DNA of 63,711 bases, counting the filler, from Dimargaris cristalligena (Eukaryota): NCBI GenBank assembly GCA_003614675.1. It is 4 parts of 4 records of this genome, joined end to end, with 100 filler letters (N's around TTAATTAATTAA, not from the genome) between each part and the next. Parts side by side here need not be neighbours in the genome. Positions count along the whole stretch, not along the records: positions 15,999 to 31,862 come from ML002868.1; 3 more parts are not named here. One strand, written 5' to 3'. Below are positions 1,756-31,962 of the stretch, in pieces. The notes below the pieces were generated by a model. The model searched no databases, was not told where the DNA came from, and saw only the letters and a list, made by a program, of their open reading frames with translations. The position numbers and the translations under genes were made by a program. The stretch's first letter is position 1. Every line of letters starts with the position of its first letter.

Positions 1756-4700
1756 CTAGGATTGCACCATGGATTCGAGGCCATGTAGAGAATCGTATAG
1801 CAACTGTTAGAGGAATACGTATTGAGTGTGGGGTATAGTACAATGTAGGTTAGTTTTTGAGGGGATCTTCTTTGGTGTATTGTTATTGGAAACATGCCAA
1901 ACCCTATTTCAAGTACAAACCGCGACTTTAAAATGTGTATGCTGAAAATCAATGGCCAGTAACTCATTACAGCACAACTGCATTGGCCTAGATGGACTAC
2001 CAGTCCGCGTTTAAAAAAAAAACATCTTAAAAAAATAGCCATCTCTCGCATTTACCTTTAGGCGTTGCTTGACGCTGGCTCGCAGCCCGCAAAAATCGGC
2101 GATTTTGCCTATCCATCGTAGACAAAACTCGGTTAAAATACATAGCGCACCGGTCGGGGTGGACCAGCCCGTCGCGAAGCCCGCTTGCTGACTTTTCTGA
2201 CTAGCCAGCAAATCAGCCAACCCCAAACTAATTTCGACAATCACGGCGACCAATTCGGGGTTGTGATCGGATACTAACGATAGGTCGTCGTCGAACCCGA
2301 CCCCCATGGTGGTGGCCGGGCTACTACTGGAGGTTAGTAGTAGTCGAGAAAGGCCACCGGGATGAACGACACCCGGTGGAGCATTAGATAAAGTGGAGGA
2401 TGTTGACGAAGCGGCGGAGGGGGATGGCGATATAGTGGGCGTGACGTAGGGCGAAAGTGCCGCCGATAAAGTGGGCTGGATGGGTCCGTTGGGCAGTTGG
2501 TATAGGCCCCGGCCCGCATTACTAGCAGCGGCACTTGCGCCTGTAGTCGTCCCAAGGCCGACCGGCGTGGGGTGTGGTGGCTGGTCGTGGTGGTGGTGAG
2601 TCGAATCCATTGGATCACCCATAGTTCCACCCCCGTTAGGCTCGGTAATGGTGGGGGTTGATGGTCGGGTCAATAATTCACCATCCCGGATGATCTTCAA
2701 GTTAGCCAATAGCCCAATCAATTGTTCGTAATGAAACATAATCGTCGGAGCGGCTGACATAAGACGACGGCGGGGTGGTTTGGCGATGGATTGCTGAGCG
2801 GGGGTACCGAACCTACCCCCCAATCGGCCGTAATGAGTACTACTACTACTACTGCCGCCTCCCTTTCCCCCCTGGCGGTCCTCCCGCCCGCCCGCCGCTT
2901 TAGTGGCTTGGCTTAAACACCACCGGGCGTACTCAATCACCAACGCATTACAGTGACGGGTGAGCAGCGGGTAGGGCCGGCCGGCGAATTCCACGTACTG
3001 GTGGGTGGTCCGAATCGCCCGCGCTAGGGCCTTCATGAGTTCCTTGGGGGATAGGCCCCCAGGTGCGGAATGGTCCAACAGACCCAGTTCCCCCGGTAAT
3101 GCGGTACCCAGTCCTCCTTGTTGTAGCCGACCGTAGGTCAGTCCCGCGGACGAACTATTCCACAGGACCAAGTCCCGGCGGAACTGGCCCACGAAAACGG
3201 CCATGAGGTCCAGTAACCACTGCTGGGCTAAACCAAGGAGCGTTTCGTCAACGGGGAAACCCACGGCGCGCCATTCGAGGGCATTTTGGGCCAGAACTTC
3301 ACCGTAGAGACGCTGTTTTTGGTCGAGAAAGGTTGCGAGGGAGACTTGGTTGGTGCCTAATTGGTCAAGGGCAAGGGAGGGTGAGGTTTGAATGGTAAGC
3401 TGCATATCGTCGACGGCGTGGAGGTATTTGGCCGCGCTGAGCAGGTGGTTGAACTGGGTGGGTAACCAGGGGAGGGTTTGCTATAGACAGGTACCGGAGG
3501 GTCATTTACAAGATAGTGAAGGGTGAGTCATAAAATACCATTTTTTGTTTTTGGTAAATCTACAAAATATTTAGAGTGATCAATGCAGTAACTAGATATA
3601 TAAGGACAAAGTAGTCAACCATAGCAACTTACAGAGAGAAATTGAAACTGGTGCATGGTGAGCCATTCGCCAATAGCGTGGATATGGGTTAACGCTTGTT
3701 TCATAGCCAGGTAATCTACACGCCCGGAGCGCTGGGTTAGAGTGGCCAAGTAGGACTGCAATTGTTGCAGCTTGTCGTTATACGTGGCCCGAAACTCAGC
3801 CGGACTAGTCTGATTTTGATGCGCACGGGTTTGAATCCAGTGTTCAAGGGCCTGTGGCGATGCTTGCTCATTATTCTCCCTACCACCACCTAAGCCAAGC
3901 GGGCCGTCCATCTGTTTTACCGCCTGACTGAATATTGGCGGAATCAATTGATCAATCAGGGTCGCGTGCGATACGGTATGGGTGGCATTCACATCCCAAT
4001 CGAGCTGGTAACGAGTCGGATAGTGGAAGCCGTCGTCGTCGAGACCCAGTCGACCGAAGTGATGTTCCGGGGACATGGAAGGCTGTTTGGCCGCGGTTGT
4101 GGATTTCGGCCGCGAGGCCAGTTTGGCCATGGATGTAGAGCGGAGTTTGGCTATTGGTTTAATGGGACCCGGAGTCAACTGGTGGGTCGGAATAGGGTTA
4201 TGGTTTAATTCATTGGGCATGGCAAAGTGACCTGATGATCGGGGACGATGCTCCGGTGAACATTGCATGGCAGTATTCCCCTCGCCCGGGCTACTATTAT
4301 CATGGTCATGGCTATGGGGTTGACTTGGCTGATCCATAGGGTGTTCAAGTCGGCCGTGGTTCACCGGCTCGGATAACGAGGGGTTCCCATGACTACTAGT
4401 GGATGTGGGTTCCATCGACGAGGAAGTAGTAATGCCGCGTTTCTGGGTAGAAATAGTTGGGCCACGGCCGTGCGGGCCGTCGTCTCGCGATACCGACAGG
4501 GCGCGGGCCAAACGAGTCGATAGGGCCTGGGATAGTTTGGCTGATTTTAAGTCGCGGTCGCCCCAGGGGTCGAATGAGGGTTTACGCTTATGACCGGTGG
4601 TGGAACGCGACTCCAGGGGGGACCCAAGGGGCAGGGGGGGCGAGGTCGTAGCAGGGCCGTCGATAAGCAGTTCCCCGAAGGCCGGTGTGGCTACATGGAG

Positions 4701-4934
4701 GCGACTTGGTCGTATGGTACCACCACTATGGCTAAAGCTATGGCTGCTCCCGCCTACTACCACTCCGCTGCTCCACGCGGGCGAGCCGGTCCCCGTTGGG
4801 TCAGGCGAAAGATAATTGCTGGGCTGGCGGGGTCGAGGAGGCCGAATGGGACAGCCTCGCTCGTCAAGTAGGACATTTTCGAAGGCCGTTAAAATCGTCA
4901 AGAGGGGTTGTACCCATAGTGCCGAATGGTCCAT
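1756..4934 (-). CDS. Hypothetical ~900-aa protein, 3 exons (4934-3633, 3480-2056, 1803-1756)
   Basis: Two long ORFs join in frame via a GTAAGT..AG intron (3632-3481). A second phase-0 intron (GTAAAT at 2055, CTAACAG at 1804) gives the terminal exon LLYDSLHGLESMVQS*. Ser/Pro/Gly low-complexity tracts; no family recognised. Confidence 0.7.
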
Positions 4935-6235
4935 GTTCGGGGAGAGGGGGGAGGTCTATAGGAAAATATGATAGTAGGTACTCGGCCGTTTTTTAGGAAG
5001 TAAGGGTAGGTAGCGGAGAGTTGCTGATTCCAGGTAGCAGTGGTGGCGCGATTCCCTTAAAGTAATAATAAACTATATTGTTGGTAGGTGGACTCTTTTC
5101 CACAAATATATGGCAAGCTGGGAAATGTCAAGGTATTTACCACACGTGACCGGATTCATATGTCATTTCTTATGCTCTGCTGCTACTACGGCTCTACCCA
5201 GAGTTATTATGATGGTTGATAAACCCAATTGGCTATTTAGGCCAATTTGAGCAAGGGGGGTTAATTATGCCACTATTCGTCATAAAAACACAGGCATAAA
5301 CGCTCCCCATTCTACCTTGGCTCTTAAATGGCGGTTACAATATGTGCATTCCCTGACAATCCCTGTAGCTATGGGATTTGAGCGACACCAATAGCCTGAT
5401 ACTGATGCTTAGCGAATTGGTGAGCGAACTTAGGTGTTATAATTAGTAGATAAATTTATTAATCGGTTGAGACATGAAGTGATAAATGAGGATACTAGTG
5501 AATGAATGTATTTAATGAGCAGGCGGGAGTAATAGTCATCTGAGGGGGCTCTACCTCGTTGAGTTATTACTTCCTTTTTATATTGGAGAATTTAGAGGTC
5601 TAAGTCGGAATGGTGTGGCCGCAGCAACATCAGGTTCTCCTCCACGGGGATTGTGTTCGATTGGAGGTGGCTCCACCCTAGCTGTATTCCCATTACCATG
5701 AACTACTTGGCCGATGCCCAGTGTCGCAGTCGGCTCAGCATTAACAATACCAAATGAAGTGTTAGCAGCACTCGGTAATGTTCGAGTAATTATGTTCTAT
5801 TATGTGCTGTATGCTTTGTTATAATTGGATTTTGTTTATACAGGCCAACTACCGATAAACATAAATTGCGGAAAACGGGAAGCCTCGATAAACTACATTT
5901 CATCCAACATCTTAACAAAGGTCAAAATAAGCACCTGATGCCGAGTCATTGGTATCACCACTTTGGGGTTACGTTGTCCAAACTAGGCGTAAATCTCGAT
6001 GGCGCTGAATGGCAGCCGCCATTTATTATTAATTGCGATAATAAGCCTCACACGCCCAATGTCAGAGTTAAAATCACCCACAGAAAATGAAGTGGAGAAG
6101 CAAAATTAATGGGTTGGAATAAAATTCATAACTAAATCCAATGTAGCATACTAGAGTGTCGATATAACCAGAGCGTAGTAGAAACCATAGCTCCACGAAT
6201 GGGGGGCCATTAAAAAGAAACGGAGTATCAGCAAT

Positions 6236-8797: not shown

Positions 8798-11700
8798 CGG
8801 TTAGAGAAATTAGGCGAAGAGGGTTGAAACAAAGATTAGGAGTGTATGGTAAAATAAGTATAGGATAATGAAGGAATTAGCCCGAAAAGGGGCAGGGGAT
8901 TGTTAGAGAAATAGCTATGAAAGTGCGTCATAAAAGGTCACGGTATCGTTTGGTCATTAGAGTGGCAAGCCAATGATGGGGGCAATGGTGGATGGATTTG
9001 AGGTCCCATTTATATTGCCAATCGATTAATCAACTCTTGTTTGGAAGGATACTTTAGTTTATGTATTAATGGCCGTGTAGAGCAATGGACGACAGGGGTT
9101 GCCAGTAATGCCTTCCTTGACCAGAGATGCTCAAAATGCCCTAACTGGCTGGCTCTCCATAGCCGCGGCATTTGGGCCAAGCTCGGCACTTAAAAACACC
9201 CAATCTGAATAGTGGACGAATGGGGACATGTCCTTTACCGTCCTTACCCGGTGGTTATTTAACCCTTCCTATTCTAGCACATCCCACATGGACATAAATG
9301 CCAGGGCTGCTTCCACTACCCTTTCCTTAAGAATCCTTCCGTTAGGCAATCTATACTGTTGTGAAATACAGTCTACCTACAACAATGGGGTAATCCATTC
9401 CCATGACAACTAGTTTCATACTGAAGGTGGTATAAATGCCTACCTTAGTGAGTGTGGTCACGGATGATCACTCGCTTCTTTACTGTATCTTTTAATTTTA
9501 CTCGTGGTTTGATCCTGCGATATTTTTATCATGAGTTTTTAAGTGATAAAAAAACTCAATGCTAATGCGGTTGGCTTCCAAGTCCGTCGAATGAAAGCTA
9601 ACCCATGCTGAGGGGCTAATAGCGAGAATATACGCGGACATTGCCCCAATAGTTTGGTGTGGGATTTTATTTCGCACTCACAGTGACAAGCCTTTCCCTT
9701 GATTAGGAGGGTGACGGTTTAGTTGCAGGTGAAATGCTAAAGTAGGCAAGTATCTCAGCGCACCTATACTAAACAGGAGTATATGTGTAACATTAACTAT
9801 AGCGATCACCATCAAGAAAATATCGACTTTGAAGACATGGGAGGCTTGGTTAATCCATACTTATCGACTAATACGTTCGAATATGAACACCCATCCCCGT
9901 TCTTAAACACTGGTGGTGGGAACTCTGACTCAAACACTAAGCCATCCTGTATTGCAAGTATATCCAACTGGGTGATTCGTGTAGAAAGCGTTTATTTTAT
10001 ATCTGGGACTTGTTTCCAACACTGAATTTCAAACAAGCCCGTGGCATTGTTTGTCAGTGGACTGGGGGACTTATTAGGCAATGGTAAGAGTAAAAAAAAT
10101 GAATAAGCAAGTTGTAAGTTAATTATTAAGAGGTTGGGGAATTCTTCCAGAATGGGGAAATGGCACCCCTTGTCCAATGTTCATAGTACCCCTTGGCGGG
10201 CTAGAGAGTGTCGCTGAAGCACACACCGGTCGATATTGAACGGTTGCGAAAGCCCAGGTGTATTCTTCTAACCCTAGTCAGTGGCAATTCCTGGTAAGGC
10301 ATCTTCTATTAGTCAATTCTTGAATTTAAGGTTGTCGGGCATGTCCGCCTATGAGCCAGCCACCTTTTTACTGTTTTGGGGGGAATCACTGAATCTCTTT
10401 TGGAAATCCTCGTGGACCCTCCGTGCCTCTCTGTCAATAAAAAACCTAGTACCCCCCACTCCGGCTATAAAGCGATTGGACATTTGGGCTGGTATTGGTC
10501 CTGCCTATATGGGATGATCCCTATCACAAGCGGCTACACACTATCATAGTTGCTGCTCTATGATCAGCGTTTACCTACTATTTTCTCTTGTCATATTCTA
10601 ATCGTAATTCTCAGGCTGATCCATTTAACCTATAGAATATGAATACATATATAGGTAATTCAAAGATTGGCAGCTTCCACGCGCATGGCCACTTAAACAT
10701 TACCAGTATTTATTCTAGGGTGGCCTTAATTTAAGCCTCCAAAATAGGAATACAGGCTGCTCTTTTTTCCCTACATAGTCGAACTCAGAACACCAATCAT
10801 TCCTTGCAATGAAGGAGGTATTTCTCACGAAAGAATCTGATTCCTCTGGCGACTGTTACCCTTTCAAAAAAGCTCACAACACCCCTGATACACTATAAAT
10901 GATAAGGTCTGAGTTATATTTGCGTGGGTAAAGTACGCTGGAATTCGCTCAAACACGCATGATTTTTTAGTCGACTGGTTGCTTATTGGATAATGCAGTG
11001 CTGCTGATCAGCAATCCCTGCGTGCACCCTACCACACTCATCTTAATAAGTTTCTAGAACCAAGTCTTCTCTATGGTCACCTCGAATAAACGGCAAACAC
11101 ATCAATGTACATTGCACACCTTGGGAATGCATTGGGAAAAGATTCACCTCAGCTATATAACAAAAACTTAGGTAGTTTTGCTGGCTGAAACATATTTTCA
11201 CCTAAATTTATATCGTGCATATTTCATTCTAAACCATATACAGTTGTGTCAACTTTCACTCAAACCAAACCTCCAAAGTTTTGCACAGCCGCGGTAAATT
11301 GTATACATATTTATATATATTGTTATCACACTAGACCTCTTGTAGAGGTGCCTTGTGAGTCTAGCTAATCCGGGGGACACACACCTTACCCCACGTGAAC
11401 CTTTCTAGGGCATTTTGTTACACGCTTAGTGTCCGTCACGGACAATTATGCGTTATTCTAATTAAAGAGACCTGTATGTTTAATAACCTGTTTTTTAAAG
11501 GGAGTGCGGAGAATAGAAGGCATATTATGGGTTCATATTCTTTGCGATTACTGGATATGTGGATTAAGTTGATCGACCTGTTTAATATTGTAAGATTTGT
11601 GAAGCGATTGTATGATTTTGTATATGCATGTTGAATTATCATATCATCACCTGAAAATGCTCTGTAGATTCCTATTCAAAAAAAGTGCGCAATGGGAACT

Positions 11701-14700
11701 AGTGGATAGATTTATGTGCCGATTGTAATCGACGAAGTATCCAACCTATTGGGCACTAACCCCAACAAATACCAGGCAAGGTGATGAGATGTGTTTCGTT
11801 TTCTTAGAGAAACGCTCTGAACCTGGGCATAGATTAGCTCACAAGATATTAACCATCGGTGGGCCATTCTAGATGGTGCTTTGGATTGCATCTGAATCAT
11901 CTATCCAATCCTACAGCACTTAAAGGGCCCTGCAGTACGTCTTTCTCGGAATATCAATGAGCCGTTTCCAATATTTTGGATCACCATGGGGTTCTTAGGG
12001 GCAATCGCCAAGGTGATATTTGATAGACCATTGGTCCCTTTCAGTACATGTTTCATAGTTGAGCCTGGTCATAGAGCTATCACTGGGACATATACAATAG
12101 AGGAGGGTGCGGATAGGCCAGTATATAGGAGCTTCAGGGTGATCCTTACCATCCTTCTAGAATTCCCTAGCGCCCTAATTCATCCTAACCCATTCTGTTT
12201 CTTAAACGAGCCAATATACCTCTGAGCTATTTTACAATGTAGGATCATAATGTAACCAATTAAGCCGAGTGGGGCCAGAGAACAGTGTAAATAACTAATG
12301 GCCGAGTAGGGCAAGTAACTAAAGAAATGAGGTAAATTAATAATTATTTTATTGAAAGACACTGGATCCTGGTCTGTCGCTCGGGACGGCCCATATTATT
12401 CCTCTGGGGTGAGGTGTGGTTCTTGTGCCGTTGGGGTGGGGCTATCTTCCTCCATGGTGGGGGATAGATGAGTCGTGACATGGTCCCTTGGTTCCTCCTC
12501 ACTCAAGTACCATGTACTGTGGGGAGGACTGACCTCTCGCCCATGAGTGGTGGATGCCTCCCCCGGTTGCAATAAGTACTGGTATAATACTGGCAGATAC
12601 CTCACCTCATTCCCAATGAATAATGAACTAAGTGCCCTGTTCTAAACGGCATATTAGAGTAGTAGGTGAATTCGAGTGCTTCTAAAAATAGCTCAGCACC
12701 TATCTCAATCAAGTCGATACCCGCCTAGTGGTTTATGAAGCACTATATGGTTATTACAGCCGAGATCCATGTCTGCGGATATATTTTGTAAAATATGTAC
12801 AAGAAGGTATACTCCTAATACACGGATGCTGGCTGGTAGTCTGGTAGAGTTGTACTACAGATTCCTGGGTTGAGTTGATACAGGTCCCGACTGAGAGTTT
12901 GGCCCAACCATCGGGGGTCGGGGGCATTGCTGGTTTTCTAGACTGCAAACCTGCCTTAAAACCAGATAGGCGAGTCATTGGGAAACCATTTAGTGTTATA
13001 GTTGGTGTCTACTGCCCAAGTCACTGTTAATGATATGGAAAAAACATAAATAATACCCGGGTGTGTTAATCAATGATAAATAATCAAAATTACTCATGCA
13101 ATTCAATACTATTAGACTTAGCCTGGCTAAGCCTTTCTGGGATGAAATGCTTTGGTGTGGCAAGTTCATCGAGAAATGTGATAAAGATGCTCACTCAGGT
13201 CTATCCATGATTATTATTATTTCAATGCTAGCTGCTGCTGCAGTTGGACTGGGTTTTTGGCTGGAGAACCATCTTTCCCTTTTAAATCAGGGGTGATGAC
13301 AACTTCACAACAATATAGGCTTTAATAAAGGTACAGATGAGAATACCCTTTGCTGAAAAGAATTGAAGAACAAACGGCTGCATAAAATGTGTTTCGACTT
13401 TGATAATCCCATTGCCAAATGCCCAAGCCAATTAGGAGCGCTGAGCTAAGAAGGTAACTAATATGCTATTAAAGGGCACAGAGTAAAGGTTGTATGCATA
13501 TAAATAAATAGGTTGAGTAGATGCTTAGGGAAAGAGGGCATTCCGAAGGTGATTAGTAGACACCCCAGGGAAATTAACTTCCTGGGCCGCATTGATAAAA
13601 TGAGAACAGCTCTAAAAACACAACCTAAAGAGTGCACTAGTGTTGCATCCACAGTCATGGTAGGGCTTAACTCCAGTCACCAAGACGATCCAGCTCCATT
13701 GGAGTCCACTGGCACAGCTGGAACTAGAGCGGCCGCTATGCCAGATAACCAGAGCGTCTTGCAGCCACCCTTGACCCGACCAGGGACTCCTTACTAATAA
13801 CCCCCCTTTTCACTATAACCGGCTGATGACCGGCTCATGCATGCATTGTTCTTGAGAGTTCGATGAAGTTCTTTCCGGCCCCTTCATTGCCTTTAGATGT
13901 TAGTTATAGGTCATATAAAAAGTGTACGGGCGTCACACCCTGATTCTTTAGTTTACTAGCGCTCGCATTGCTATCATTAAGGTTCTTACTATCAGTTCTT
14001 CGTAATAAAATGCTCATACCATTTGCTATTCTAACACTAGCTTGAACCAATCTCATAATAAATTACAATTGTTAATGCTAGATCAACCAAGGTACTTAGT
14101 ATTAGCCAAGCAGCCCATGGTGATGGACCCATGATTAGGATAGAACTACTCCCAATTGGGTAACACTTTGGTGAAGCAAAGTCTGGCAACACTACCAGAA
14201 CCAACCCCAGCATGTCCATACCAAACCCACTTCTATGTGCTATTGCCCAGATCCATAACAATGAGTGACTTAATTACACCTCCAGACTGGACTGGGGTGA
14301 AGACCCTCCACATAGATAAGGGGAGCACCCACTTGTACCCTGTCTCTGGTTGGACCTTTAATCATCCAATATAAAAGCAAGGTCTGATCTGACACACTAG
14401 TATCCTCAACTGAATGTAGACCTCCTCCATCACTATACCCAATCACTGGTTTCTGATTTTGCTATTATCTATTATATATTCCTATAGATATTGATAGCAC
14501 CACTCATTATTCATTACTAACTGTATATGCTTGCTGACTCACTCTATAATTCAATCACACATTTACCAGGGCTCAATACTACAAAAAGTAGACCCAATGT
14601 TGTCTATTTACATGTTTGATGTATTTGGTATGTGTAGTTGCCCCCAGGGGTTAAGGTAGCCAAGAGTTAGGTGTAAACCAAAGAAGATGTTTTCACAATG

Positions 14701-14797
14701 AAAAAGTTGCCACTGTGAAACCTTCCATATTTTATGTGAGTGAGAAATTAATTTAGCTGTCTAATTAACATTTTACACAGAAAAATCAATACCATAG

Positions 14798-15352
14798 TAT
14801 CACCAGAATTAACCACTCTTAGTCCATTAAGAGTCCTGAGGATAGGTTTCTAACAGTAGGTGGGGTTTAGACTCAGCTAAGTGGGCTACTAGCATTAGGA
14901 TAGGGGTGCAAGTTAATGCCAGTGATATGCAGCAGGCACACTTACTAGTTAGCACAAGGGGAATAAGTATATAGAGTTTATTGAGGTAGACTGGGGGATT
15001 TGAATAAGCCCAGGAATTGAACCAGTCCCAGTGGGGCCTAGTTATATATACACAGGGATGGCTCCAGAGGGAGGTCCCAAGGGAAATATGACTAAGATTA
15101 AGGTGCAGATAGGTAAAGAATCCAACTGGATGACTTTGCATCAGGAAGACTCTCATGGGAACTGGAAGAGTCTTAGGTCAGCAAGTTGAGTGTTTAGGGT
15201 ACTAGTATTGGGGTTGAATGGGCAGGATTAAATAATAAAGGATGCCCCCATAGTACTGGGGGTGACTATGGGAGGGTCAATATGGCACTATAAGGCCAAA
15301 ATAGGACAGGCAATCATTAGGTCTGGATTAAGTCAGATTAGGAGGGCTGACA
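14798..15352 (+). repeat. LTR-like dispersed repeat family A, copy 1
   Basis: Starts TATCACCAGAATTAACCACTCTTAGTCC, ends GATTAGGAGGGCTGACA; clearly alignable to copies at 17046, 26239, 31616, 46225 and 46855. Confidence 0.8.
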
Positions 15353-15898
15353 ATTGGTAAGAAATTTTAAAATATTAGAAGGGTAGTTTTTTTAATAAAC
15401 TATAGTTTCTATATACTAGCTACAAGATTATATATAAAAGAAAGTTTAAGTTTATTATAATTTAATTTAATATAGGAATAATCCTTTAAAAAGTAGTAGT
15501 AGACTACTTTAAAGTATTAAAAAGTAGTAGTTATCAACTTTAAAGTATTGAAAATTAATGGAAAGTAGTTAAAGAAAGCTAATTTACTACTAGTCCAATT
15601 ACCAGGCATCAATTTACATAGCATAGTTTTTTTTTAACTTTCCCAAGTCATTATTCATAGATTTATTTTAGGTCTTATAATTGAACACAGGGTTGGTGAA
15701 CATTTTTCCCTCGGTATAAAAAAAAGTCCCATCAATGTACCTATTTTCCGTTTCGATAAAAAAAAGTACCACTACATCATTTGGAACTTTCATCCAAATC
15801 ATTATATAGTTATATTGAACCTTTCCCATATGTAAATAGGCAAGAGTCACGTTGACTTCACACCTCCCCAACCTGAGTAAGTTTGTCTTCTTACGAAG

Positions 15899-15998
15899 NN
15901 NNNNNNNNNNNNNNNNNNNNNNNNNNNNNNNNNNNNNNNNNNTTAATTAATTAANNNNNNNNNNNNNNNNNNNNNNNNNNNNNNNNNNNNNNNNNNNN
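15899..15998. other. Assembly gap (100 nt of N with TTAATTAATTAA spacer)
   Basis: N run with a central all-frame-stop spacer; same structure at 31863 and 47795. Confidence 0.97.
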
Positions 15999-16828
15999 GG
16001 ATGGATTGGTTTCCCTGATGGATTCGATATAACTCAGAGTATAGAGTTAGGACCTTGGCCATAAGTAGTTTGGTGAAGCGATTCACCATTGTTTTCCAGA
16101 TTTCTTTGGCCGTCAGTTCACCATTGAGGGAGTCTGTGTACTGGTTATTCATGGTTACATGGAGCACAAATGAAGCCATTCGATCATCCTTAAGGTACTG
16201 CTTGTTTAAAGCCTTTCCCTTAGGATCATCAGTAGTTGTTGGTTCAAAACCATCTTCTACAATCTCCCAAAGATCAGATGATTGTAGGTATAGGTGCATA
16301 GACAGGGCCTAAGCAGTGTAGTTATCACCATCAAACTGGTGGGGTTGGATGTTAAGTTTAGAAAGTTTAGAACTCATTGTAAGAGTAGGTAGTAAGGTTA
16401 ATTGATGTTTAAAAGGGATGGATGGATGAGTAAATGGATAGTTGGATAGATGAATTTCAAAATGAAAGGTAGATGGATAAGTATCCAGTATGGTAGATAG
16501 ATAGTAGATGAATGTTGTGATTGAGGTATAAATGACTAGTTTATTGGAAACACACCAGGGCTCATAACCTGTTGGAAATATGGATTTGATAGTAAACGCA
16601 AGTATCTTCGAATACAACTAAAATGTTTTAAAGAAGAGAGAAAGAACCGCAAGGGGCAAGGCTAGATGCCCGCGGTAGGTTTTATTGAGTTGGAATTAGT
16701 AGTGATAATGACTAGGACGAAGTCCCAGGTATATAATGATATAGTAAAGATTAAAATATAGTCCCGAGTATAGGACAAGCCAATCAGAGTAAAGGAATTG
16801 GTGGGATGGGGGAAATGAATTTCCAACA
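15999..16828 (-). mobile_element. Ty1/copia LTR retrotransposon remnant: 5' LTR (16570-16828), PBS, disrupted gag
   Basis: LTR bounded by a perfect 10-bp inverted repeat TGTTGGAAAT/ATTTCCAACA, followed on the minus strand by copia-type PBS GGTTATGAGCCC. gag reads FDGDNYTA*ALSMHLYLQSSDLWEIVEDG...TAKEIWKTM (DUF4219/Retrotran_gag_2-like) with an in-frame stop; truncated at the gap. Confidence 0.9.
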
Positions 16829-17045
16829 CAATATCCAACACAACCCTCTTCCATGTATGGCTATTACCATAATATAATCTTATCATTTTGGGAAAGTAGT
16901 CCCAAGTGAATATGGGAGAGTGAACACCTACAGAGTAATAGTGTCTATAAAGAAACTCTTGTAGGTTGAGGATTATACCAATGCTAGCTGGCTAAGTAAG
17001 TGAAGCAGGGTATAGTGGCTCTACTTTATTAAATAGTTCTATAGC

Positions 17046-17634
17046 TGTTACTTAAGTTAACTACTCTTAGTCTATTAAGAGTCCTGAGGATAGGCTTCTA
17101 ATAGTAGATAGGGCTTGGGCTTAGCCAAGCAGTCTACTAGTATTAGGTACAGGCATGGTACTAACTAATAAAGCTTCAGTGTAGGTATAGGTATAGGTAA
17201 GGGATATACAGTGGGCATACTTACTAGTCAGTATAGAAGGGGTGAGTATATATAGGGTTTATCAGTGGTAAACTAGGGGGGTAAGAGTAAGCTAAGGAAT
17301 CTAACTGGTCTTAATAGGGTCTAGTTATATATACTAGGGATGCCTCTAGAGGGAGGTCCTAGGGGAAGGATACTACTAAGACTATAAAATAGGTAGTTAG
17401 GCTAACTAGATAGCCACTAGTATCTAGAAGACTCTGATGGTAACCAAAAGAGTCTTTGGATCAGTACTTGAGTAATTAATGTAAAGAGGTGGAGTCCAGA
17501 AAGGGAAGGGTTATATAATATAGGGTGATCCCATAGTATGAGGGGTGACCATAGGAAGGTTAATATGGTACTATTAGGCCTAATAGAGATAGACACTAAT
17601 GTATCTGGATTAGGGTGGATTAGATAGTCTAATA
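17046..17634 (+). repeat. LTR-like dispersed repeat family A, copy 2
   Basis: TGTTACTTAAGTTAACTACTCTTAGTC...GGATTAGATAGTCTAATA; heavily transition-mutated copy. Confidence 0.8.
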
Positions 17635-20325
17635 CCCCACACTTTTAATCTGACTGGGCTGCAGATATTAGGTGATTATTTATCTTTTGTTAGGTAAATG
17701 GTTATAGTAAGATGGTGATAAGGTAGGTAGGACATGGTAGTATGTAGTCTTGCATATGAACCTATGGTTCCAATGTGAACATTACCTAGGTGTATAGGGG
17801 AAGTATTCCACTCATTATAATTGATGTTGGCATACCCTTAGTTATCCCCAAGTGCCTCATTGAGATCAATTAGTTGAGTTTCAATTCCTAAATATAACAA
17901 ATAAGAACCATAAGAAGAAAGAGGAGGATTCAATCAATAAGGATGATTAGAATCATACGTCACACAGTTTGTCATGGAAAATACCCCTGTAGGGGGAAAC
18001 TCGGTTTAATATTGGCCACCAAGTCGCATTAGGGGGTGCTTGTTTAAGCCGATTGGCATCCAAGTACCAAGGACGTGTATGGTATACACATACAGTGAAT
18101 GGCATTCATATGTCACCTTGAAAAGGGTTTGGCTATCCTCTCTATCCATAATATTCGACGAATGTAGGTATATTGTATTGAGTACTGTAGGTTGTACAGT
18201 CCCTCTGGTGATGCTAATTTGTTGGATATAGATTTCAGTAATCCGTAATTTAAATATAAGGACAAATGTCGTTGCTGAATCCTATAGACCCGGTGCTCTC
18301 CTTTCGAGTTTCCCCTCGTGGGCGGGTATTCCTGGCCCCTCTCAAACCCTATGGTCAAAATATTTTTCGCAGATCTCTAGCTGATGCATTTGGATTGGGG
18401 TTACATCAGGGAATATCTATACAAGGAGTTCCCACTTTGCCCAGGCTAATATTTATATTTAGATGATGGTGTTTTCTGCTTTTCATTGGCTATTAAAATA
18501 AACGTGCAATTTTACCCCTGTTCTTCAAGAACGGTTCATTCAAAGTGGGTATTCCTTGATGACATTCTGGGTGCCATATATCCTGGCATTGCTTTACATA
18601 TCTCTTTATTTACTACCACTGTTTTTAGTATCTGGCCAGGGGCCTCTTGTGTGATACTGGACCGGCTAGTTGTAGCATCCGGTTTAACCATAAATCTGGA
18701 TGGGCTGGAATATATCTCGCACCAAGAGACTTATGTGGTGAGTGGACTTTACTGTGGTCCATATGGCCGTTACTGACTATGGTTTGTATAATAACAGCAC
18801 TAGTCTAGACCTAAGGGGAATTTTACTTGGAAACGAGAGGTCAAATTGAATGGCGACTGGGACCCAAATCTATTCTACCCAAGCAGGAAAATGGAAATCC
18901 TAATATTCGTCACTGTGATATTAGTGGATGGACTTACAATTATACGATGAGGCAATGAAGTGGCTGGGAATAGGAATCACAATTCCCAGCAACATATAAT
19001 GATTGTCGGTGCCCAGTTTTCCGAATTCATTGAATTGGGGCTAACGATGATCGGCACGGCCGAGTCTCGCTCAGTTAAACGGCTGCAGCGTATAGTACCC
19101 CGTAACTATAGATCGTAAGTGACGGCTGGAGAGAATGGCCGAGAGCCCATATGCCCAACCTCGCTGCACTTTTAGTACGCTGGTCGAAGACCTTCCTGGT
19201 GAACTCCAGACCATCCCCTGTAAAGCCCTTTCCCTCACACACACACCTTCTCTCTTGTTATATATATGCCTTGCTATCAAATTCTTAACTGTCAGGGGCT
19301 TTTCACCAGGGATCCTTAGGAATAGACAAGGCATACGTGGCCATTTGTCACAGGCTTGGTCTGAATATGTCTCTCCACCTTCCATCCAATTTACTGCAGG
19401 AAGTCTCGGCTATTTTCGGGAAAGTATTCACTTTGTTCTGTGGTATGTGATGTATGTTATCATACCTAAGACATTTTACGTCCCCATGTCTAACTGCATC
19501 GCTATTACTATTATTATGCGAGCGCCCGTGTCGTTATTGTTTTTGTATTCTTCCGGAGTACCCCAGCTTTACCACTCCACACCCTAATTGCATCTAGGTT
19601 TTAGTAACCATGGTAACCTTTTATAAAGGATGCCCTCGGTTGACGAGGGAAAGTAATAATCCCCATATCCACCCCAACTCATACCAGCACACTTCCAATT
19701 CCTTTACTTGCTCTTTTATTTACCTAAATATTTATAGGTTACTTCAAATAAACTTTTCTCAAAACAACACCGTTACCACTGAACAAAGTGCGGTTTTCTT
19801 AGGAACTCTTGTATCTTTACAATGCCTACAGACTTATCTATTCACCAATCAGTGTTATTTAAAAAGATGGTGACACGAGGAGCCATTTAAATCCGACCCG
19901 ATCAGGTGAACAGGAGAGTGCGGGGGCGTTGTATTGCTTGCTGTATATAATCCAGCCAAGAAATTTGGCGCCTTAGGGTTTGTTGAATGACGAAGGAGCC
20001 AATAATATAAGAGGGGACGCAAGGTGAAGGAGGAAGGGGGAAACTCACCCTCTAATTCCTTTTTCACGGTAACTTGTTCTCTTAGTGAGCCTTCTCTTCT
20101 AAGCCTTGTCACATTCCTATTGCCCAGCTACTGTGCCGTCTTTTCTCTGGCTCTCCCAAACCATCCGAGGACTATTTATCTTCTTTGACCAAACGACCTT
20201 GCCCATACGCTTCGTCATTCCCTCTCTCTCTTTCTCCTACTATATTACTTTAGCTAACCCTTAAACTTTGACCATCACTTCCCCAGCCCTGTTCACCTGA
20301 TTGTGTGACGTATAGACTACCCACC

Positions 20326-22050
20326 ATGCCGCGTATTGACGATTTGGTTGACCGGGCCTGCCATCCCTCCCTCACTGAGCCTGACATGGCCCTCAACCTC
20401 GACGTCTGCGACCTCATCAACACCAAGCAACAAACCTGCCCGCACAATGCCGCCGTCCGCATCTCCAAACACATTAACCACCGCAGCCAGCACGTCAACC
20501 TCCTCGCCCTGGAACTCCTCGACTTTTGCGTCAAAAACTGCGGTCACCCGTTCCACTACCAAATCGCCACCCGCGAATTCCTCGAGGAATTGGTCAAGCG
20601 GTTCCCCGACCCACCCGCCGTTGCCCCCACCCGGGCTCAGTATCGTATTCTGGAGATGCTCCAGGAATGGCGGGTCACCATCTGTCGCCATTCCCGCTAC
20701 AAGGGGGATTTGGTTAACATTGAGAAAATGGGCAACCGCATGGCGTACAAGGGGTATATGCTGCCCGAGGTGCAGGTGGACCAAGCCACGATTCTGGGTC
20801 CCAAGGATGATTTGCAGTCACCGGAGGAAAAGGAACGGGAAGATAGACTGGCCTTGGGGGCAAAACTGCAGGAATTGCTCCGCCGGGGCGGGGCCGACAA
20901 TTTGGCCGAGGCGAACCGGCTGATGAAACTAATGTCGGGTTACGACAAAAACTCCAATTTTCGGGAGGCCCGGGATTACGCCGCGGAATGGAAACAAGAA
21001 CTCGATGATATTGAACTTAATACCGGGCGGTTGGCCCATTTTGTCAAGTACTCGCCCGACCCCTCGGCGTTTGACTTTGACAACGAACCGCGGACGCTGC
21101 TCAATACGGGTCTGCGGCACCAAAAGAAAATCCAGAAACTCATCCAGGAAAACGAGGACCACGAGGATTTAGGCCGTTTGTTGCACCTTAACGACATCAT
21201 CGGCGAAACCATTGAAGCCGTGCGGTGTGTCCAGAGTGGCCAACCCGTCACCCAACTACTGGCCCACGCTACCCTGGGCCCCAAGGAACCCCGGAATGAC
21301 GGGGGCCGTGACTCTGCGCTGACGTCCATGAGTGGCAATAGCGCGCATAACCTGGCCCTTATTGATTTGGAATCCATCCTCGAAACCCGCTCATCGGCCT
21401 CCAGTGACCGCCCCCGCAGCGACTCCATGGCCTCTGGTCCTTCGGCTCTTTCGTCGAGAAGTACCATGGAACTCCGTCCATCGACCTCGTCATCCGTCAA
21501 CAACCACCTTCTCTTGGACGACCTGGTGGGCCTGGAATTCGACCGCATGTCCATCAGTTCGGCCTTTTCGACCATTTCCCAAGCCCCACTGACTAACAAA
21601 ATGACCTCGTCGGCGTATAATTTGGAACAACAGCCCCTAGGCACTGGATTAAGTGAAAGCGGTGGTATTGGTGGTGGTAGTAGTGGTGCGGTGGATACCA
21701 TATCGTCACCCATGTCCCCCACAGGGTCCACTTTCAACACGGGTTTGCAACCGCGCATTTCCGGCCGAGCCAAGAGTCAGCTGCTGCCGCGGATGACTGG
21801 TGTTATTAGTCACCAGCACAGCGCTAGCTCAGGCAGCTTTTCGGCCATGGCCACCACCCCCACTACGCCGGTATTCCACGGTCTATCCCCCGGTCCCAGC
21901 TCCTCCCGGAGTAACTCGGTCGCCTCGGTGCGGTCACCCTACGTACTGACATCGGCCAACACTAGGCCTCAGTCATCTAATCCCACGACCCCGGCCAACC
22001 CCCCTCAATCGTCGGCAGGCTCTAGTGGCGATTTGATTGATTTGAGTTAA
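20326..22050 (+). CDS. GGA-type (Gga1/Gga2-like) VHS+GAT clathrin adaptor with no recognisable GAE ear domain
   Basis: VHS: RACHPSLTEPDMALNLDVCDLIN..LLDFCVKNCGHPFHYQIATREFLEELVKRFP. GAT: AKLQELLRRG..LAEANRLMKLMSGYD, LGRLLHLNDII. Clathrin-box-like LIDLE and terminal DLIDLS. Start CCACCATG at 20326. Confidence 0.88.
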   Translation: MPRIDDLVDRACHPSLTEPDMALNLDVCDLINTKQQTCPHNAAVRISKHINHRSQHVNLLALELLDFCVKNCGHPFHYQIATREFLEELVKRFPDPPAVAPTRAQYRILEMLQEWRVTICRHSRYKGDLVNIEKMGNRMAYKGYMLPEVQVDQATILGPKDDLQSPEEKEREDRLALGAKLQELLRRGGADNLAEANRLMKLMSGYDKNSNFREARDYAAEWKQELDDIELNTGRLAHFVKYSPDPSAFDFDNEPRTLLNTGLRHQKKIQKLIQENEDHEDLGRLLHLNDIIGETIEAVRCVQSGQPVTQLLAHATLGPKEPRNDGGRDSALTSMSGNSAHNLALIDLESILETRSSASSDRPRSDSMASGPSALSSRSTMELRPSTSSSVNNHLLLDDLVGLEFDRMSISSAFSTISQAPLTNKMTSSAYNLEQQPLGTGLSESGGIGGGSSGAVDTISSPMSPTGSTFNTGLQPRISGRAKSQLLPRMTGVISHQHSASSGSFSAMATTPTTPVFHGLSPGPSSSRSNSVASVRSPYVLTSANTRPQSSNPTTPANPPQSSAGSSGDLIDLS

Positions 22051-24304: not shown

Positions 24305-26238
24305 AGTGACTGATGGAGATAGATGGGGATATGAGCAGAGTTGCGAGGGTGTGTGTGGGCGTGACTTAGTAAGTCGGGTATGTAAATACGGTATCTAGAG
24401 AAGGGGGAGGTAATAGTTGATGTGCGTAAGGCAAGGGTTAGTATTGGCATATGAAGAGCCACTGTTGGCCTTGTCACTTGCAGTTACCGAGCAATAAGTA
24501 TACCCCAGAGGCGGGAACTCGTTCAGTTTGGAATTAGCGGGGAGCAGGAGAACCGACGGAGCTGTTGCGACTATGACTGTAAAAGGTCAGGGGAGTTTGA
24601 GCGGTCTGATCGGAGCAGTATTGAACATGCGAAAGAGGGGTCTTCTATATACGTCTAATCAGCGTGAACTGGCGACAGTCAGTATAGACTTACTTGAATA
24701 AACGGTACAATTGGGGCGAATTCCAAAGAAGAAATAAAACAGAGTTGCAAAAGGCCGAGTTTAGGCTTCGTACCAGTCACCAAGTCTTTTTTACTGGTTT
24801 CGCGTTGCTAACTTATTTTCCCTTTTTTCACCAGCAATCCCACCAGCAGACACTTTGAAATCTGCACCGCTTTCCAAAGACATCACTTTCAGAATGGCAA
24901 GAAAAAAAAACGACCTGGGCTAAAGAGGGGCAATTATAATAGCTACTTATAAAATGGGCCACGGCTCTATTGAACTGACAAGCTGGAAAAATTGGCTTAA
25001 CATTTAATGTCACGTGATATACTGTGGGTGCATTTTGGGCTGGAGCCGCTAAGATGAGAGGCTCTAGATTTTCTTAAATAAAGCTGATGGTGGACGGGGA
25101 AATACAACTTTGTAGAGCATAGTATTCTAATGTTGACGTTATATTATATTACACTCTTTATTCTACTAACGTACAGCCAAGTCGTATTTGATATTGGCGG
25201 TCATTTAAAGGTATTTCCCCAAGGTAGCCCCTAGGGACTGGGGCAGTGAAGTAAATATATTACAATGTACATCAATGAATATCACCCGCTGTGCAATTTC
25301 ATAGAGCCTTATCAAGTACAGTGTATAAAACCCCCCATAATAAATCCAGTCTGACTGCCGTCTGCCGTAGATTCTAAAAGTCCTTCATTAGAGAGATTGT
25401 AATTCCAGTAATACACCACATTCCCTAGTGGGGAAATAAGGTAGACTAACCCCATCAACTCGGAACCGTAGCACCTTGGCTTTAAAAGTATCTCCCGCAA
25501 TTATATGCTCCATCTGCTCCATTCCACTTCAGTCAGACATTGTATTTTGATCATGAGGATCGCCAGGGCCTAGCTATGCTCCACTGTCGCTCTAGCATTC
25601 GATATTTTTCATTCATTCATTACTCCCGTACCCAGTTAGAAATGATAATAATATTTCGGGCACGGGGCCATCATACCGACCCCATTCCTCATATTTATTA
25701 TCGCCCAGTCACTACACTTTGTAGAATCATGATTGAATTTCTGAATACAGCCAGTAAGTAATGTGCTGAGTAAACATACAATTGTAATGTTGAGTGGCCC
25801 CATGTGTGATGTGCCAGGCTGGGAGAAATGTGGGGTTAATGCACCGCTCATTTCAGGCTACCTTGAAGCCGTAGTTGAGGGTCGCAACATGAAATATTTT
25901 GGGATGTCTCGGGCGCTGTACCTCATGGCAGACGTGGGATATAAACGTAGGAAACAAGAAAATAAGCTAATCAAAGTGGTGAAAATAATACTGGCGAAAA
26001 TAATAATAGTTTATTGAAATAAATTAAGTTTATCGAATAGAAAATGCAAACTTCAATTTGTAGACAATTTTATGTCTCCTTTGCAGAAATCCATCATTTT
26101 TTTATGTGAATTCAAACACTAGAGAAAATGTTAGCTACATTGCAAAAGTGGGTAAAAATGAATAGATAGAAAGCTATGATTCTTGATTTCATTGGTAATA
26201 AATCAACACTAAAAGAGTTTACCAAAATTATTAATTAT

Positions 26239-26820
26239 TATTGGATTATCTAATCTACCTTAATCCAGGCATAATAATTATCTATCCCTATTAGGCCTTA
26301 TAGTGCCATATTAACCTTCCCATGGTCACCCCCAGTACTATGGGATCACTCTATATTATATAACCCTTCCCCTTCTGAACTCTACTTCTTTACACTAATT
26401 ACTCAAGTATTAATCCAAAGACTCTTCTGGTTACTTTTAGAGTCTTCCAGGCCCTAATAGCCATCTGGTGGCCTATTTATTAATTCCTTAGTCTTAGTAG
26501 TATCCTTCCCTCAGGGCCTCCCTCTGAAGCTGTCCCCGTATATATATAACTAGGCCCTATTAGGACCAGTTAGATTTCTCAACTTATTTTTACCCCCTGG
26601 TTTACCATCACAAACCCTATATAAGCTCACTCCCCCCATACTAACTATTAAGTGTGCCCACTGCACATCCCTTACCTATACCTATACTAAAGCTTTATTT
26701 GTTAGTAATATGCCTGTACCTAATACTAGTGGCCTACTTAGCCAAGCCTGAGCCCCACCTACTATTAGAAGCCTATCCTTAGGACTCTTGATAGACTAAG
26801 AGTAGTTAATACAGGTGATA
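26239..26820 (-). repeat. LTR-like dispersed repeat family A, copy 3 (reverse)
   Basis: Reverse complement of family A (CCCACCTACTATTAGAAGCCTATCCTTAGGACTCTTGATAGACTAAGAGTAGTTAA). Confidence 0.8.
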
Positions 26821-27467
26821 CTTACTGCCAAAAATATGTGTAAGTATATTATATAGTTAGACAAGACTAATGTTAACTATTCTAGGCTAAATGGCCTCTG
26901 GTTTATATGAAAATACATTTATAAGATAATCTTATTATACTATTGTAAAAAACAGCCATATTTTGGGGGAAGGAGTACCACCATTTAGAGCCATTTTATA
27001 TATAATAATGTAAATTATATTACAAAAATATTAAAATAACCCAGCCAGTACCTCTTTAAGAATATACCTACAAAAAATTAGCACTCCAAGACCATGCATT
27101 ACTAGATCCAAGTGGATATAATTATCATTTATCAGGAAATATCCAGAAATGCTGGGCAAAATATTTCCAAAAATGACTTGTGCAGTAGTTATTTGGGGTC
27201 ATGGAGTAGCTTTCATAGTCCCTAGACCCGAACCTTATTGAATACATATAGGTCTGACTTTAGAACTATACATCCCATAACTTTTAATGACTATTTAAGG
27301 GTATGCTTAAATATTGGGAAAAGGATGGTAAAACCTGGCACAGGGTCACCAGGAAGAAGTGCTAGAGGGTCATTTGCACCATCCCCGAGTATTGCAAATA
27401 AGTTATTGCTAAATAGGGCTACTGGATCGACCTTAAATTGCTTTTTTTAAAAAATTGGTAATTTTTT

Positions 27468-28903: not shown

Positions 28904-31615
28904 AGTTACGGGAATTTTAAGGGGAAAATGCCGACTGAAAGTGGTGAAGATGGTGGGGTTTGGTGCAGTAGGGCGATTAAACAACCAATCCAATTGATGA
29001 GAGTAATCACAGCCTTTATATATATATATATATATATATGACCTTGGAAAAATCATATCGATGGCTGGATCGTCGTCACTGAAATTCTTTAGGGCCAGGC
29101 ATCCTAATACATTAAAATCAAACTACTGCTCTGCCGCTGGTCACCAAACAAAATAAAATGTGCGTAAGGAAAGTGAAAAGAGAGATAAATGGCATAAGTA
29201 TTCCTTTGATAATCTGACCTACCCATAGTATGCAGTCGTACCCGGGGGATTGGCGGCTATTAGACTTGCATTACGGGTTGTATTTCGGATACTCGCCTCA
29301 ATAAGCCAAGGATATAGGTCGCGAGCTTATAAATATAACCTGTGAATACCGGACAATAAGTGATATATAGCCTCGTATTAAAAACAGTGTAGGCCATACG
29401 TGAACAGGCTGGACGGTTGTTAATATATAGGCACTGAAATTAAATGTTAATAAAGTCGCCTATGATATCAAATCAGGCAATATGATCACACTTAAATTGG
29501 ACTCTACTAGCTCAGCCTCCTTTTGCGCCTTCGTTTCAGTTTTAAAGTATCATGGGCGTTAACTAACCCCTATACCGGGAGACGGCAAGACTCATATCTC
29601 TGGCCTGAAAATATACGGCACCACTATTTGCGGGGCCATTCGCAGTTTCTTGAATCGAGAGTAGTACCTGCTTCAGGCTAGTGATTGGGTCATCATTGAT
29701 AGTCGGTGACGTATATTGTTAAAAAGAATGAAAACTAACTCGCGAATAATAGTGCAGGCATTCGGAACAGTGGTATTGTGGACGCGTTTTTCAAGAGAGA
29801 TAATAACATAGAAAAGTGTACGGGTATTAGATACAGGCGGGGGTGAAATGTAGGGGAGAATCAAAATCATTGGGAGTTTTTCCAAAGCCCCACGTTACGC
29901 ATGGCGATGCGGATTACTTGGGGGATATTTTACTTGACACTTAGGTCGAGACCTTAAACGTGCCTAAGATTGCCCTGTAGCGAGGTCTAGTAAATGGGGC
30001 ATACCTAATTGATTGCCAATAGAAATGGGACGAGGTACCCCATTACCCGGCGGCTATGATGGTAGTTTATGTTGGATTAATAATGAAGGGGTTGAAGAAG
30101 AAATAATTTCGTGTCAATTGCTTCAGGAAGACCCTTGATTCACTGGCAATGCGGTGTACGTGATGTAGGGAGGAGTTTCGGATAAGTTGCATCTACTTTT
30201 GCGAGACGATAACTCCCCCTATCGCATTGAATTATGTATAATCCTGGCACATTAATCAAAGACGGTTATTTTACGGCGTCTCCTCATCGTAATACTCCTC
30301 AATGAGGGACGTAGGTGTTATAAAAAAGACTCACTATGCAACAAAACATGGCCTGCCACAAAAACATTCAACTATCGAATAAAGGGGTATAGTATTAAGT
30401 TTGACGAACCCGTCATCATGCAATTGCAATTCAAGCAGTCTTAACTTCATTATGATGCTTAGTAACCGCCATACTAATATTAGTTCAAGAGTACATTTCC
30501 TAAAGTGCTCGGTGGTGGTTTGAACTGTTATGACCTTTTGTCAATCGTTCTCGACAGTCTTTTAAAAGTCGAATTTCTTTCCTCTGACTATATAGAATGA
30601 CTATATATAAGTGTTGATATGTGTAGTAATGGCGATGATAATAACCCTTTTCACACGGGTAGTACTGTCCGCGATTCTTTAGGCTAAGTAAACTTGGATT
30701 ACATAGACCAAATTGGAAATAAGGTTTGTAACTAGGTTGGGCAGATTAACAAAGAAGGTTCTAATATACTGATCTTGAGACTATGCGCTGCATTGCAATT
30801 CTGGGGATAAATGGGCCCAATGGAAATGTCTGGGGTTAGGTAATAGTCGATCCTATAGACGAGAGATTATAGAACAATGCCTAGAATGGAGAATTATTAT
30901 ACATTTATGCCTCTCCATTTGAAGATAATAGTGATTATTTTTTTGGGACAGAGACTCGTCCTTTACGGGGCTGGTTAACGAGGGCCAATTCGGAGGTGTA
31001 GCATTATGTTCCTTATAATGGTCGGCTGGGGGAAAGAAACCGACGAGGCGAAGGATGCTACCCGCTTGACAATATCCAACTTGTAGTGCTGCGATCTGGG
31101 TATTGGGGAGGGTTTGGCGTGGCCCTGCCGGGTTGTAGGCAATTGGACCGCGCAGGGGTGTATGAGGCAAGACTCTGTTCTTCCGGAACACTTGACCGAG
31201 ACGCCGGTGATGGTGACACTGACGATGATGAGGACTCTGTCACCCTCGGAAAGACAGAACAATGACGGGACATTCGAGACAAGGATATTTAACGAGTATT
31301 AAAAATATTTATAAAAAATAATCAAATAGATTAAATAGAATCGGGCTAATATAAACGAGCTCAAGGAATCCTGGTTACTTGCGGCTTCACCTTCGTGGAT
31401 CCTTCTCTGATAAGCGAGCTAACAGGTTACTTCAAAGAAGTATTCAAAAACTGGTTTAAATAATAATTTATAAGAAATACTCGGGAGACAATAATTGTAA
31501 ATAATGATATAATTAGAATAGCTAGGAGATCGTACTTGTGGCCATAATCATGTCCATATTCGTTCTCCCCGAATAAGGGAGGAAAAAGGCGGGCTTAAAT
31601 AAATTATTTGGATAT

Positions 31616-31862: not shown

Positions 31863-31962
31863 NNNNNNNNNNNNNNNNNNNNNNNNNNNNNNNNNNNNNN
31901 NNNNNNTTAATTAATTAANNNNNNNNNNNNNNNNNNNNNNNNNNNNNNNNNNNNNNNNNNNN
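31863..31962. other. Assembly gap
   Basis: N run with TTAATTAATTAA spacer. Confidence 0.97.

Follow-up and report, generated by a model that had tools for sequence, protein, structure and literature searches.

The stretch analysed here, referred to as the window, comprises 63,711 nucleotides, filler included, of the Dimargaris cristalligena assembly GCA_003614675.1. It consists of four contigs of 15.8-15.9 kb in order of decreasing length, separated by N spacers at 15899-15998, 31863-31962 and 47795-47894. The locus in question is the segment 17046-17634, for which a preceding note (the original prediction) had described hypermutation between repeat copies, resembling repeat-induced point mutation (RIP). 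The repeat had not been recognised for what it is: the 589 bp are most probably one copy (A) of an approximately 600-bp long terminal repeat (LTR) of a degenerate Ty1/copia retrotransposon. This LTR family carries the footprint of a long-acting, transposon-directed C-to-T process that favours C before a purine and is chronic and mild. The footprint has two layers: a complete loss of CpG over transposon DNA and a few hundred base pairs of flank, and a 5-fold excess of CpA/TpG>TpA changes. The second layer is polarised only in the LTRs and, as an excess of TpA, is seen only there. Copies were found and aligned within the window using blastn and MAFFT, which gave six copies of one family; these and the two gag-bearing remnants are as follows.

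17040-17640, minus strand: LTR copy A, the flagged copy, a probable 5' LTR whose sense strand is the minus strand of the window.
26239-26825, plus strand: LTR copy B, sister of A with 82% identity, within the CpG-poor gap 26034-27229.
46263-46771, plus strand: LTR copy C, lacking part of its 5' end, forming an inverted pair with D.
46849-47445, minus strand: LTR copy D, forming an inverted pair with C.
14758-15408, minus strand: LTR copy E, which diverges most from the others and lies in the CpG-free gap 14001-15712.
31621-31862, minus strand: LTR copy F, incomplete because its contig ends there, the sole copy keeping several CpGs.
15999-16377, minus strand: N-terminal gag remnant (gag1) of the element to which LTR A belongs; its ATG is at 16377-16375, a TAG follows in frame at 16311-16309, and the remnant is interrupted at 15999, where the contig ends.
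47895-49431, minus strand: island of a second copia family, with a gag at 48397-48747 (PF14223, E 1.5e-9).

Immediately downstream of LTR A, the minus strand encodes a copia gag domain (PF14223, Retrotran_gag_2, E 1.9e-10, profile positions 1-92), and the family-consensus termini taken from the alignment, TGTCAG...GCGACA on the sense strand, fit TG...CA. Because these termini are followed directly by a copia gag on the same strand, a Ty1/copia LTR is the most probable identity of the repeat. Inspection by eye of the surroundings of copies A, B, D and E revealed neither a target-site duplication nor a clear primer-binding site. The element of LTR A runs off its contig at 15999, which places its second LTR outside the window. 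In addition, several of the four contigs end within LTR or copia remnants, indicating that the assembly breaks at this repeat family. The gag at 48397-48747 shares 25% amino-acid identity with gag1 and represents an unrelated family; a Pfam search of 19 other open reading frames (ORFs) of the islands returned nothing credible.

The copies are old. They are 18-31% apart (pairwise identity 69-82%), with transition to transversion ratios (Ts/Tv) of 1.5-4.3, and no homology of the flanks was found between copies beyond approximately 30 bp. With copies of this age, the earlier description of the defence as active is not supported. In the inverted pair of C and D (46263-47445), the 3' ends face each other over a 78-bp spacer, with 72% identity over 1.1 kb; a chimera formed during amplification was considered for this pair and rejected, since the divergence is too great. 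The pair may stem from nested or rearranged insertions. The LTR is also strand-asymmetric, with 26-30% G and 12-15% C on the strand aligned with the plus strand of copy A, so that the sense strand is C-rich. This asymmetry is common to all six copies, including F, and is therefore probably ancestral rather than created by the C>T changes.

The abundance of the family was estimated from contigs of four public sequencing runs from two studies, placed on 15999-22000 at a likeness of at least 80%. Between 1406 and 2255 contig pieces were placed per run, with 60-100 contigs per LTR site on a counter that stops at 128, and the boundary consensus of the family, TGTCACCCAG, was found in loose contig ends of three runs. 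The summed depth over LTR A reached 140-480x the single-copy level in run X2; summed depth is a rough proxy and not a copy number, and it suggests roughly hundreds of genomic copies of the LTR family. The gag part of the element lies at about 5-10x the single-copy depth. An artefact of amplification or assembly is excluded by contigs of the second study, which are identical to copy A from 16797 to 17083 and from 17144 to 17452, and further by unique DNA, which the second study reproduced with 1 difference in 4.4 kb. Over the whole family, Ts/Tv is approximately 3.7-4.9 (for example, 219 to 45 in X2). Two segments bordering LTR A are set apart by depth and CpG content.

16592-16828, unstranded: 237-bp high-copy segment between LTR A and gag, with a depth of about 120x (X2) to 235x (X1) and other copies about 85% alike.
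17641-17958, unstranded: 318-bp CpG-free flank past LTR A, with 0 CpG against 9.0 expected, at the unique depth level from bin 17808 onward in all four runs and thus single-copy there at 80% likeness.

The loss of CpG is sharply localised. The window holds 2652 CpGs, one per 24 bp, and its largest CpG-free gaps are located at 47677-49431, 14001-15712, 46132-47677, 16765-17958, 26537-27229 and 26034-26537; the long ones span 1193-1754 bp. The ratio of observed to expected CpG (O/E) is 0.04 both in the LTR copies (3.3 kb) and in the remaining island DNA (4.8 kb). It rises to 0.75 in non-ORF DNA elsewhere (38.8 kb) and to 0.94 in the long ORFs (16.6 kb), so that the earlier description of nearly CpG-free repeat islands beside CpG-rich genes is borne out. 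Copies A and E contain 0 CpG against 20.2 and 24.9 expected, copies C and D jointly 0 against 48.7, and copy B 1 against 20.3, whereas copy F keeps 4 against 11.8 and its adjoining DNA (31000-31620) has 30 against 27.1. Internal parts of the copia elements have lost CpG as well, without an excess of TpA: the gag1 remnant has 4 CpG against 13.7 expected, and the island of the second family has 0 against approximately 52 (three sub-regions), with a TpA O/E of 0.78-1.14. The CpG-free zone exceeds each LTR edge by 130-750 bp. In the flank past LTR A, TpA (O/E 1.09) and TG+CA (O/E 1.11) are both normal and CpG loss is the only change; in the flanks as a whole, the TG+CA O/E is 0.87-1.35, with the clearest excess to the left of E (1.32) and to the left of B (1.35).

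These observations bear on the explanation that no targeted process is at work and that an intrinsically TpA-rich and CpG-poor LTR decayed neutrally, with a transition bias, after insertion into CpG-poor, AT-rich DNA. AT-richness is not the cause of the CpG loss, since unique DNA at 29-31 kb has a GC content of 0.39-0.42 and yet a CpG O/E of 0.9-1.0. Six sites carry CG in F or B, and the other copies have TG, CA or TA at these sites in a distribution that does not follow the copy tree, indicating that ancestral CpGs decayed independently among the copies. CpG-free gaps of 1.2-1.75 kb are equally hard to reconcile with neutral decay, given the mean CpG spacing of 24 bp. Other features of the LTR do suit this explanation. 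There are 25 TpA sites fixed across all copies, and F, the copy that keeps CpGs, already has a TpA O/E of 1.59, indicating that part of the TpA richness is intrinsic. Changes on the branches of A and B have a Ts/Tv of 5.3 and a ratio of GC>AT to AT>GC, per site, of 1.75, the latter being ordinary for fungi. When only strict singletons are counted, polarity is weak (53/174 versus 62/263). The context of the private changes described below argues strongly in the other direction, and an untargeted origin is considered improbable.

Both sequence strings on which the original prediction was based are present, in copy A from 17046 and in copy F from 31616. It had been claimed that every difference between them is C>T or G>A, and this is correct for the quoted 65 nt, where 14 of 14 differences run in that direction from F to A (7 C>T and 7 G>A). 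As was also stated, these changes fall at CpG and non-CpG sites alike: 5 at CpG, 5 at CpA/TpG and 4 elsewhere, in the context of F. The pattern does not extend to the full alignment of A and F: among 67 differences at 246 positions, 32 run in the direction claimed, 14 are transitions in reverse and 21 are transversions. If the quoted part is set aside, 18 changes in the claimed direction are left, along with all 14 reverse transitions and all 21 transversions. The quoted 65 nt are thus the most one-sided stretch and are not representative.

The changes within the LTRs were polarised by comparing each copy with the majority (at least three) of the others, and private changes were counted where the neighbouring base was unchanged. 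C>T occurred at 48 of 137 CpA/TpG sites, compared to 19/262 at CpC and 22/335 at CpT. For the reverse change, T>C occurred at 56/570 TpA sites, 11/193 TpC, 19/241 TpT and 3/97 TpG. The contrast between CpA/TpG and the pooled CpC and CpT sites (48/137 versus 41/597) corresponds to an odds ratio of 7.3 (p = 5e-16). It is also seen in the sister copies A and B, for which polarity is safest (25/53 versus 8/217, p = 4e-14), and in a stricter test of A and B using outgroups (12/58 versus 15/274, p = 6e-4). Tabulating polarity by dinucleotide, as had been proposed, thus confirms on six copies that the changes are directional, yet the directionality is bound to the CpA/TpG context. The resulting spectrum is CpG >> CpA >> CpC = CpT, with CpA/TpG changing approximately 5-fold faster than CpC and CpT. 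No preference for the third base was observed (CAA 8/23, CAC 14/40, CAG 8/21, CAT 10/34), nor a clear preference for a 5' T (CCA 20/42, ACA 6/16, TCA 10/32, GCA 5/29).

An origin of the CpA signal from hidden ancestral CpGs was ruled out by simulation. With random ancestors and hypermutation of 20-40x at CpG only, the apparent CpA rate was 0.12-0.13 against 0.10, whereas with a 5x multiplier at CpA it rose to 0.41 against 0.10, near the observed values of 0.35 and 0.07. Neither the neutral nor the CpG-only simulations reproduce the context effect. Sites that carry both CA and TG, of which there are 31, are polarity-free, since a TpA ancestor fits them equally well. Pyrimidine-purine (YR) dinucleotides are variable in 46% of cases versus 28% for other dinucleotides (p = 0.046), a modest effect.

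The CpA effect is present on both strands (25/58 and 20/74). This matters for the possibility that the changes arose before integration, through errors of reverse transcriptase or APOBEC-like editing of the cDNA in master lineages. The 'private' changes of a transposon copy do include those of its master lineage, and the difference between A and B described below could reflect extra cycles of retrotransposition. However, editing of the cDNA is strand-specific and the two strands are hit similarly, so that this form was rejected; in addition, the loss of CpG in the single-copy flank is left unexplained. A pre-integration origin is accordingly regarded as highly improbable.

The composition of the LTRs agrees with the polarised changes. 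Among the sequence classes of the window, the LTRs are the only one rich in TpA (O/E 1.52) and poor in TG+CA; in copy A, the O/E values are 1.81 for TpA and 0.57 for TG+CA. The YR dinucleotides divide into CG, CA+TG and TA in proportions of 0.01/0.41/0.59 in the LTRs versus 0.15/0.52/0.33 in other non-coding DNA, and the RY control barely differs. A composite RIP index above 0.3 is found in 9 of 16 500-bp windows that overlap an LTR versus 7 of 231 others, and the five highest values (0.83-1.80) are all in LTR windows. The published cut-off of 0 is passed by 69 of 247 windows and is unspecific here. The highest value outside the LTRs, 0.79, was observed at 2751-3250, in GC-rich, CpG-normal DNA.

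This index signal favours a genuine RIP-type defence, in which homology would be recognised in the sexual or another stage and a DNA methyltransferase (DNMT)-like or other deaminating enzyme would introduce bursts of C>T at CpG and CpA, with leakage into the flanks. CpA>TpA is the canonical RIP dinucleotide change according to the available text of PMC12543289, and within the phylum of Dimargaris, signals of the composite index have been reported, with caveats, for the Entomophthorales (PMC11105155, in its available part). The presence of the signal on both strands and the CpG-free flank fit as well, as does the fact that the most repeated part of the element, the LTR, is the most affected, while internal parts at about 5-10x depth lack a TpA excess. 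CpA hits are unequal among the copies (chi-square p = 0.009), with 18/29 in A, 7/24 in B, 12/31 in C, 6/23 in D, 4/21 in E and 1/9 in F. Other transitions do not differ (p = 0.19), so that the copies vary in intensity without regard to their overall divergence. The in-frame TAG of gag1 sits at a likely Trp codon, a position at which copia gags usually have Trp. The first in-frame stop of the second gag sits at a probable Tyr position of copia gags and would need a transversion.

Several observations do not fit such a defence. The family is still very abundant, and ORFs of approximately 100 codons persist in the gag remnants. Ts/Tv is only 1.5-5.3, far from the near-exclusive transitions of RIP, and no strong loss of GC is seen (0.41 in the LTRs versus 0.44 in other non-coding DNA). 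At YR sites, changes in the two directions nearly balance (48 forward and 56 reverse events), indicating that the family is at equilibrium and not in the middle of a burst. Together with the transversions, which make up 20-40% of the differences in most copy pairs, these values show that the term hypermutation was an overstatement; what stands of the earlier claim of a repeat-targeted C>T process is that the changes are context-dependent and repeat-associated. The flank shows loss of CpG without loss of CpA. As to dependence on duplication, the CpA effect was measured in the LTRs; CpG has been lost over the single-copy flank and the 5-10x internal parts as well, and the segment at 120-235x keeps its CpGs. 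RID has been reported from Dikarya (PMC7862722, available part), and a kingdom-wide k-mer screen confined to scaffolds longer than 50 kb found repeat-directed signatures solely in Ascomycota (Badet & Croll 2025, PMC12543289, available part); with this filter, contigs as short as those of the window (approximately 15.9 kb) were left out. A genuine RIP-type defence is therefore held to be a tentative and rather unlikely explanation.

The reading that we prefer, by a little better than an even chance, is the deamination of 5-methylcytosine (5mC) in methylated transposons. Cytosine-5 methylation would be nucleated on the LTRs, with CG strongly and CA less strongly methylated, and would extend into the neighbouring DNA by a few hundred base pairs, or approximately one or two nucleosomes. 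Over many generations, 5mC would deaminate to T, and the family is by now near its compositional equilibrium, which is TpA-rich, CpG-free and at a GC content of approximately 0.41. Methylation as the cause, its nucleation on the LTRs and a role in defence are what we infer from this pattern.

A number of observations weigh against this preferred reading. CpG decay alone should leave an excess of TG+CA, and the LTRs are depleted instead (O/E 0.57-1.02), so that a second, non-CG step is needed; no CA methylation is documented in this lineage, and our literature search found no published methylome or DNMT data for the Dimargaritales. Copies A and B are of equal age, and their difference in CpA hits (18/29 versus 7/24, p = 0.027) looks episodic and not clock-like. 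Strict singletons show no CpA preference (CA 8/45, CC 22/89, CT 23/111 sites), a filter that was judged unsuitable since it drops sites hit in more than one copy and under-samples fast sites. At the best-supported 21 of 363 family-majority LTR places, which are a biased subset, copy A has 11 GC>AT changes, 6 AT>GC changes and 4 transversions, and these 11 are located at 3 CpA, 1 CpG, 6 CpT and 1 CpC. The segment 16592-16828 keeps 7 CpG against 7.8 expected though it is high-copy; it begins 212 bp from LTR A, with the nearest CpG at 275 bp. Finally, the supposedly unique flank may be an old relic that has diverged by more than 20% from its relatives.

The identity of the organism determines to which known systems the footprint should be compared. 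The long ORFs of the window encode ordinary eukaryotic proteins: a subtilase, a VHS/GAT protein, an S-adenosylmethionine (SAM) decarboxylase, a major facilitator superfamily protein and a MutL-family protein. The SAM decarboxylase ORF (39326-40774) matches a D. cristalligena protein in 433 of 433 residues, with one gap of 49 residues that is probably an annotated intron, and its next relative, in Dispira simplex, has 53% identity. This match places the source among the early-diverging fungi (Zoopagomycota, Kickxellomycotina, Dimargaritales), as the original prediction had supposed; it is neither an ascomycete nor a basidiomycete. No Pfam match was obtained for two minus-strand ORFs, 2011-3480 and 3615-4955 (489 and 446 codons). 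Three copies of another small repeat family, approximately 150 bp long, lie in or beside CpG-normal DNA (35710-35862, 42495-42642 and 49343-49494; 81-90% identity); this family keeps some CpGs, and its variable CpG sites are mostly transitions, with one transversion. The 5 kb at 9001-14000 have no ORFs of more than 110 codons and are partially CpG-depleted (O/E 0.45-0.68, GC 0.40-0.45); lying beside the island 14001-15712, this region may be an older, more decayed relic.

RIP proper is homology-triggered, premeiotic and RID-dependent. The Dimargaris footprint resembles RIP of Neurospora crassa and other Pezizomycotina in its C>T and G>A changes on both strands of repeats, in the preference for CpA>TpA, in a high TpA/ApT and a low (CpA+TpG)/(ApC+GpT) ratio, and in effects that reach past the repeat edge. 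It differs in that CpG is the prime target and CpA the second, in its low severity (with the Ts/Tv and GC values given above), in the very many copies of the family and in the position of the organism outside Dikarya. A Dimargaris defence of RIP type, guided by homology or small RNAs and deaminating cytosines in bursts at the CpG and CpA of the most repeated DNA, is in our judgement unlikely.

5mC at transposons accompanied by CpG decay, in systems of the DNMT1/DNMT5 or DNMT1/Dim-2 type, is described in the available parts of PMC7862722 and PMC11258239 for basidiomycetes, Phycomyces and Linderina pennispora. In L. pennispora, a kickxellalean fungus of the same subphylum as Dimargaris, 5mC is located almost only in repeats, and in Phycomyces, transposons carry 5mC at CG and CHH (both PMC11258239, available part). 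CDCA7F, which is almost always found together with DNMT1 and HELLS, is present in Kickxellales (PMC10538959, available part). Dimargaris is thus related to a lineage with repeat-restricted 5mC, and as in these systems, the loss of CpG is confined to transposons and their near flanks and genes and unique DNA keep CpG. The excess of CpA/TpG>TpA changes and the depletion of TG+CA inside the LTRs are unlike pure CG methylation. Hypermutation of transposons resembling RIP, with TpCpG as the target, is said to occur in Microbotryum, and Aspergillus and Penicillium have a form of 'RIP' that acts on CpG and CpA. The present case shares with these a transposon-restricted C>T change with CpG as the main or joint target, and a mechanism that may be either methylation-driven or enzymatic. 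The present case differs in showing no clear preference for a 5' T and in belonging to a different phylum.

Within the phylum, a 2024 study of the Entomophthorales reported composite-index signals, including 24.2% of windows in Zoophthora radicans, with the caveat that RIP has been demonstrated only in Dikarya (PMC11105155, available part). The Dimargaris signal is similar at the level of the index, and the same caveat applies; unlike that index-only report, its changes are polarised and context-resolved in six copies of one family. In our literature search, no paper turned up that deals with 5mC, DNMTs or RIP in Dimargaris, none on DNMT1 in Kickxellomycotina and none on RIP-like CpG change in early-diverging fungi, and the available part of the D. 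cristalligena genome paper (PMC6784888) does not treat 5mC or RIP. A transposon-directed C>T footprint is therefore known in other fungi, with no report found in this lineage, and is described here from six copies in one window.

The window bears on whether repeat-directed cytosine mutagenesis exists outside Dikarya, to which it contributes the polarised, context-resolved spectrum of one transposon family from a third lineage of zygomycetes. If methylation is the cause, this spectrum would be the evolutionary footprint of transposon methylation in the Dimargaritales. If it is not, the spectrum would point towards a RIP-like system in a fungus of early-diverging descent. Should the RIP-type explanation hold, repeat-directed mutagenesis would be older than Dikarya or would have originated independently in the Zoopagomycota.

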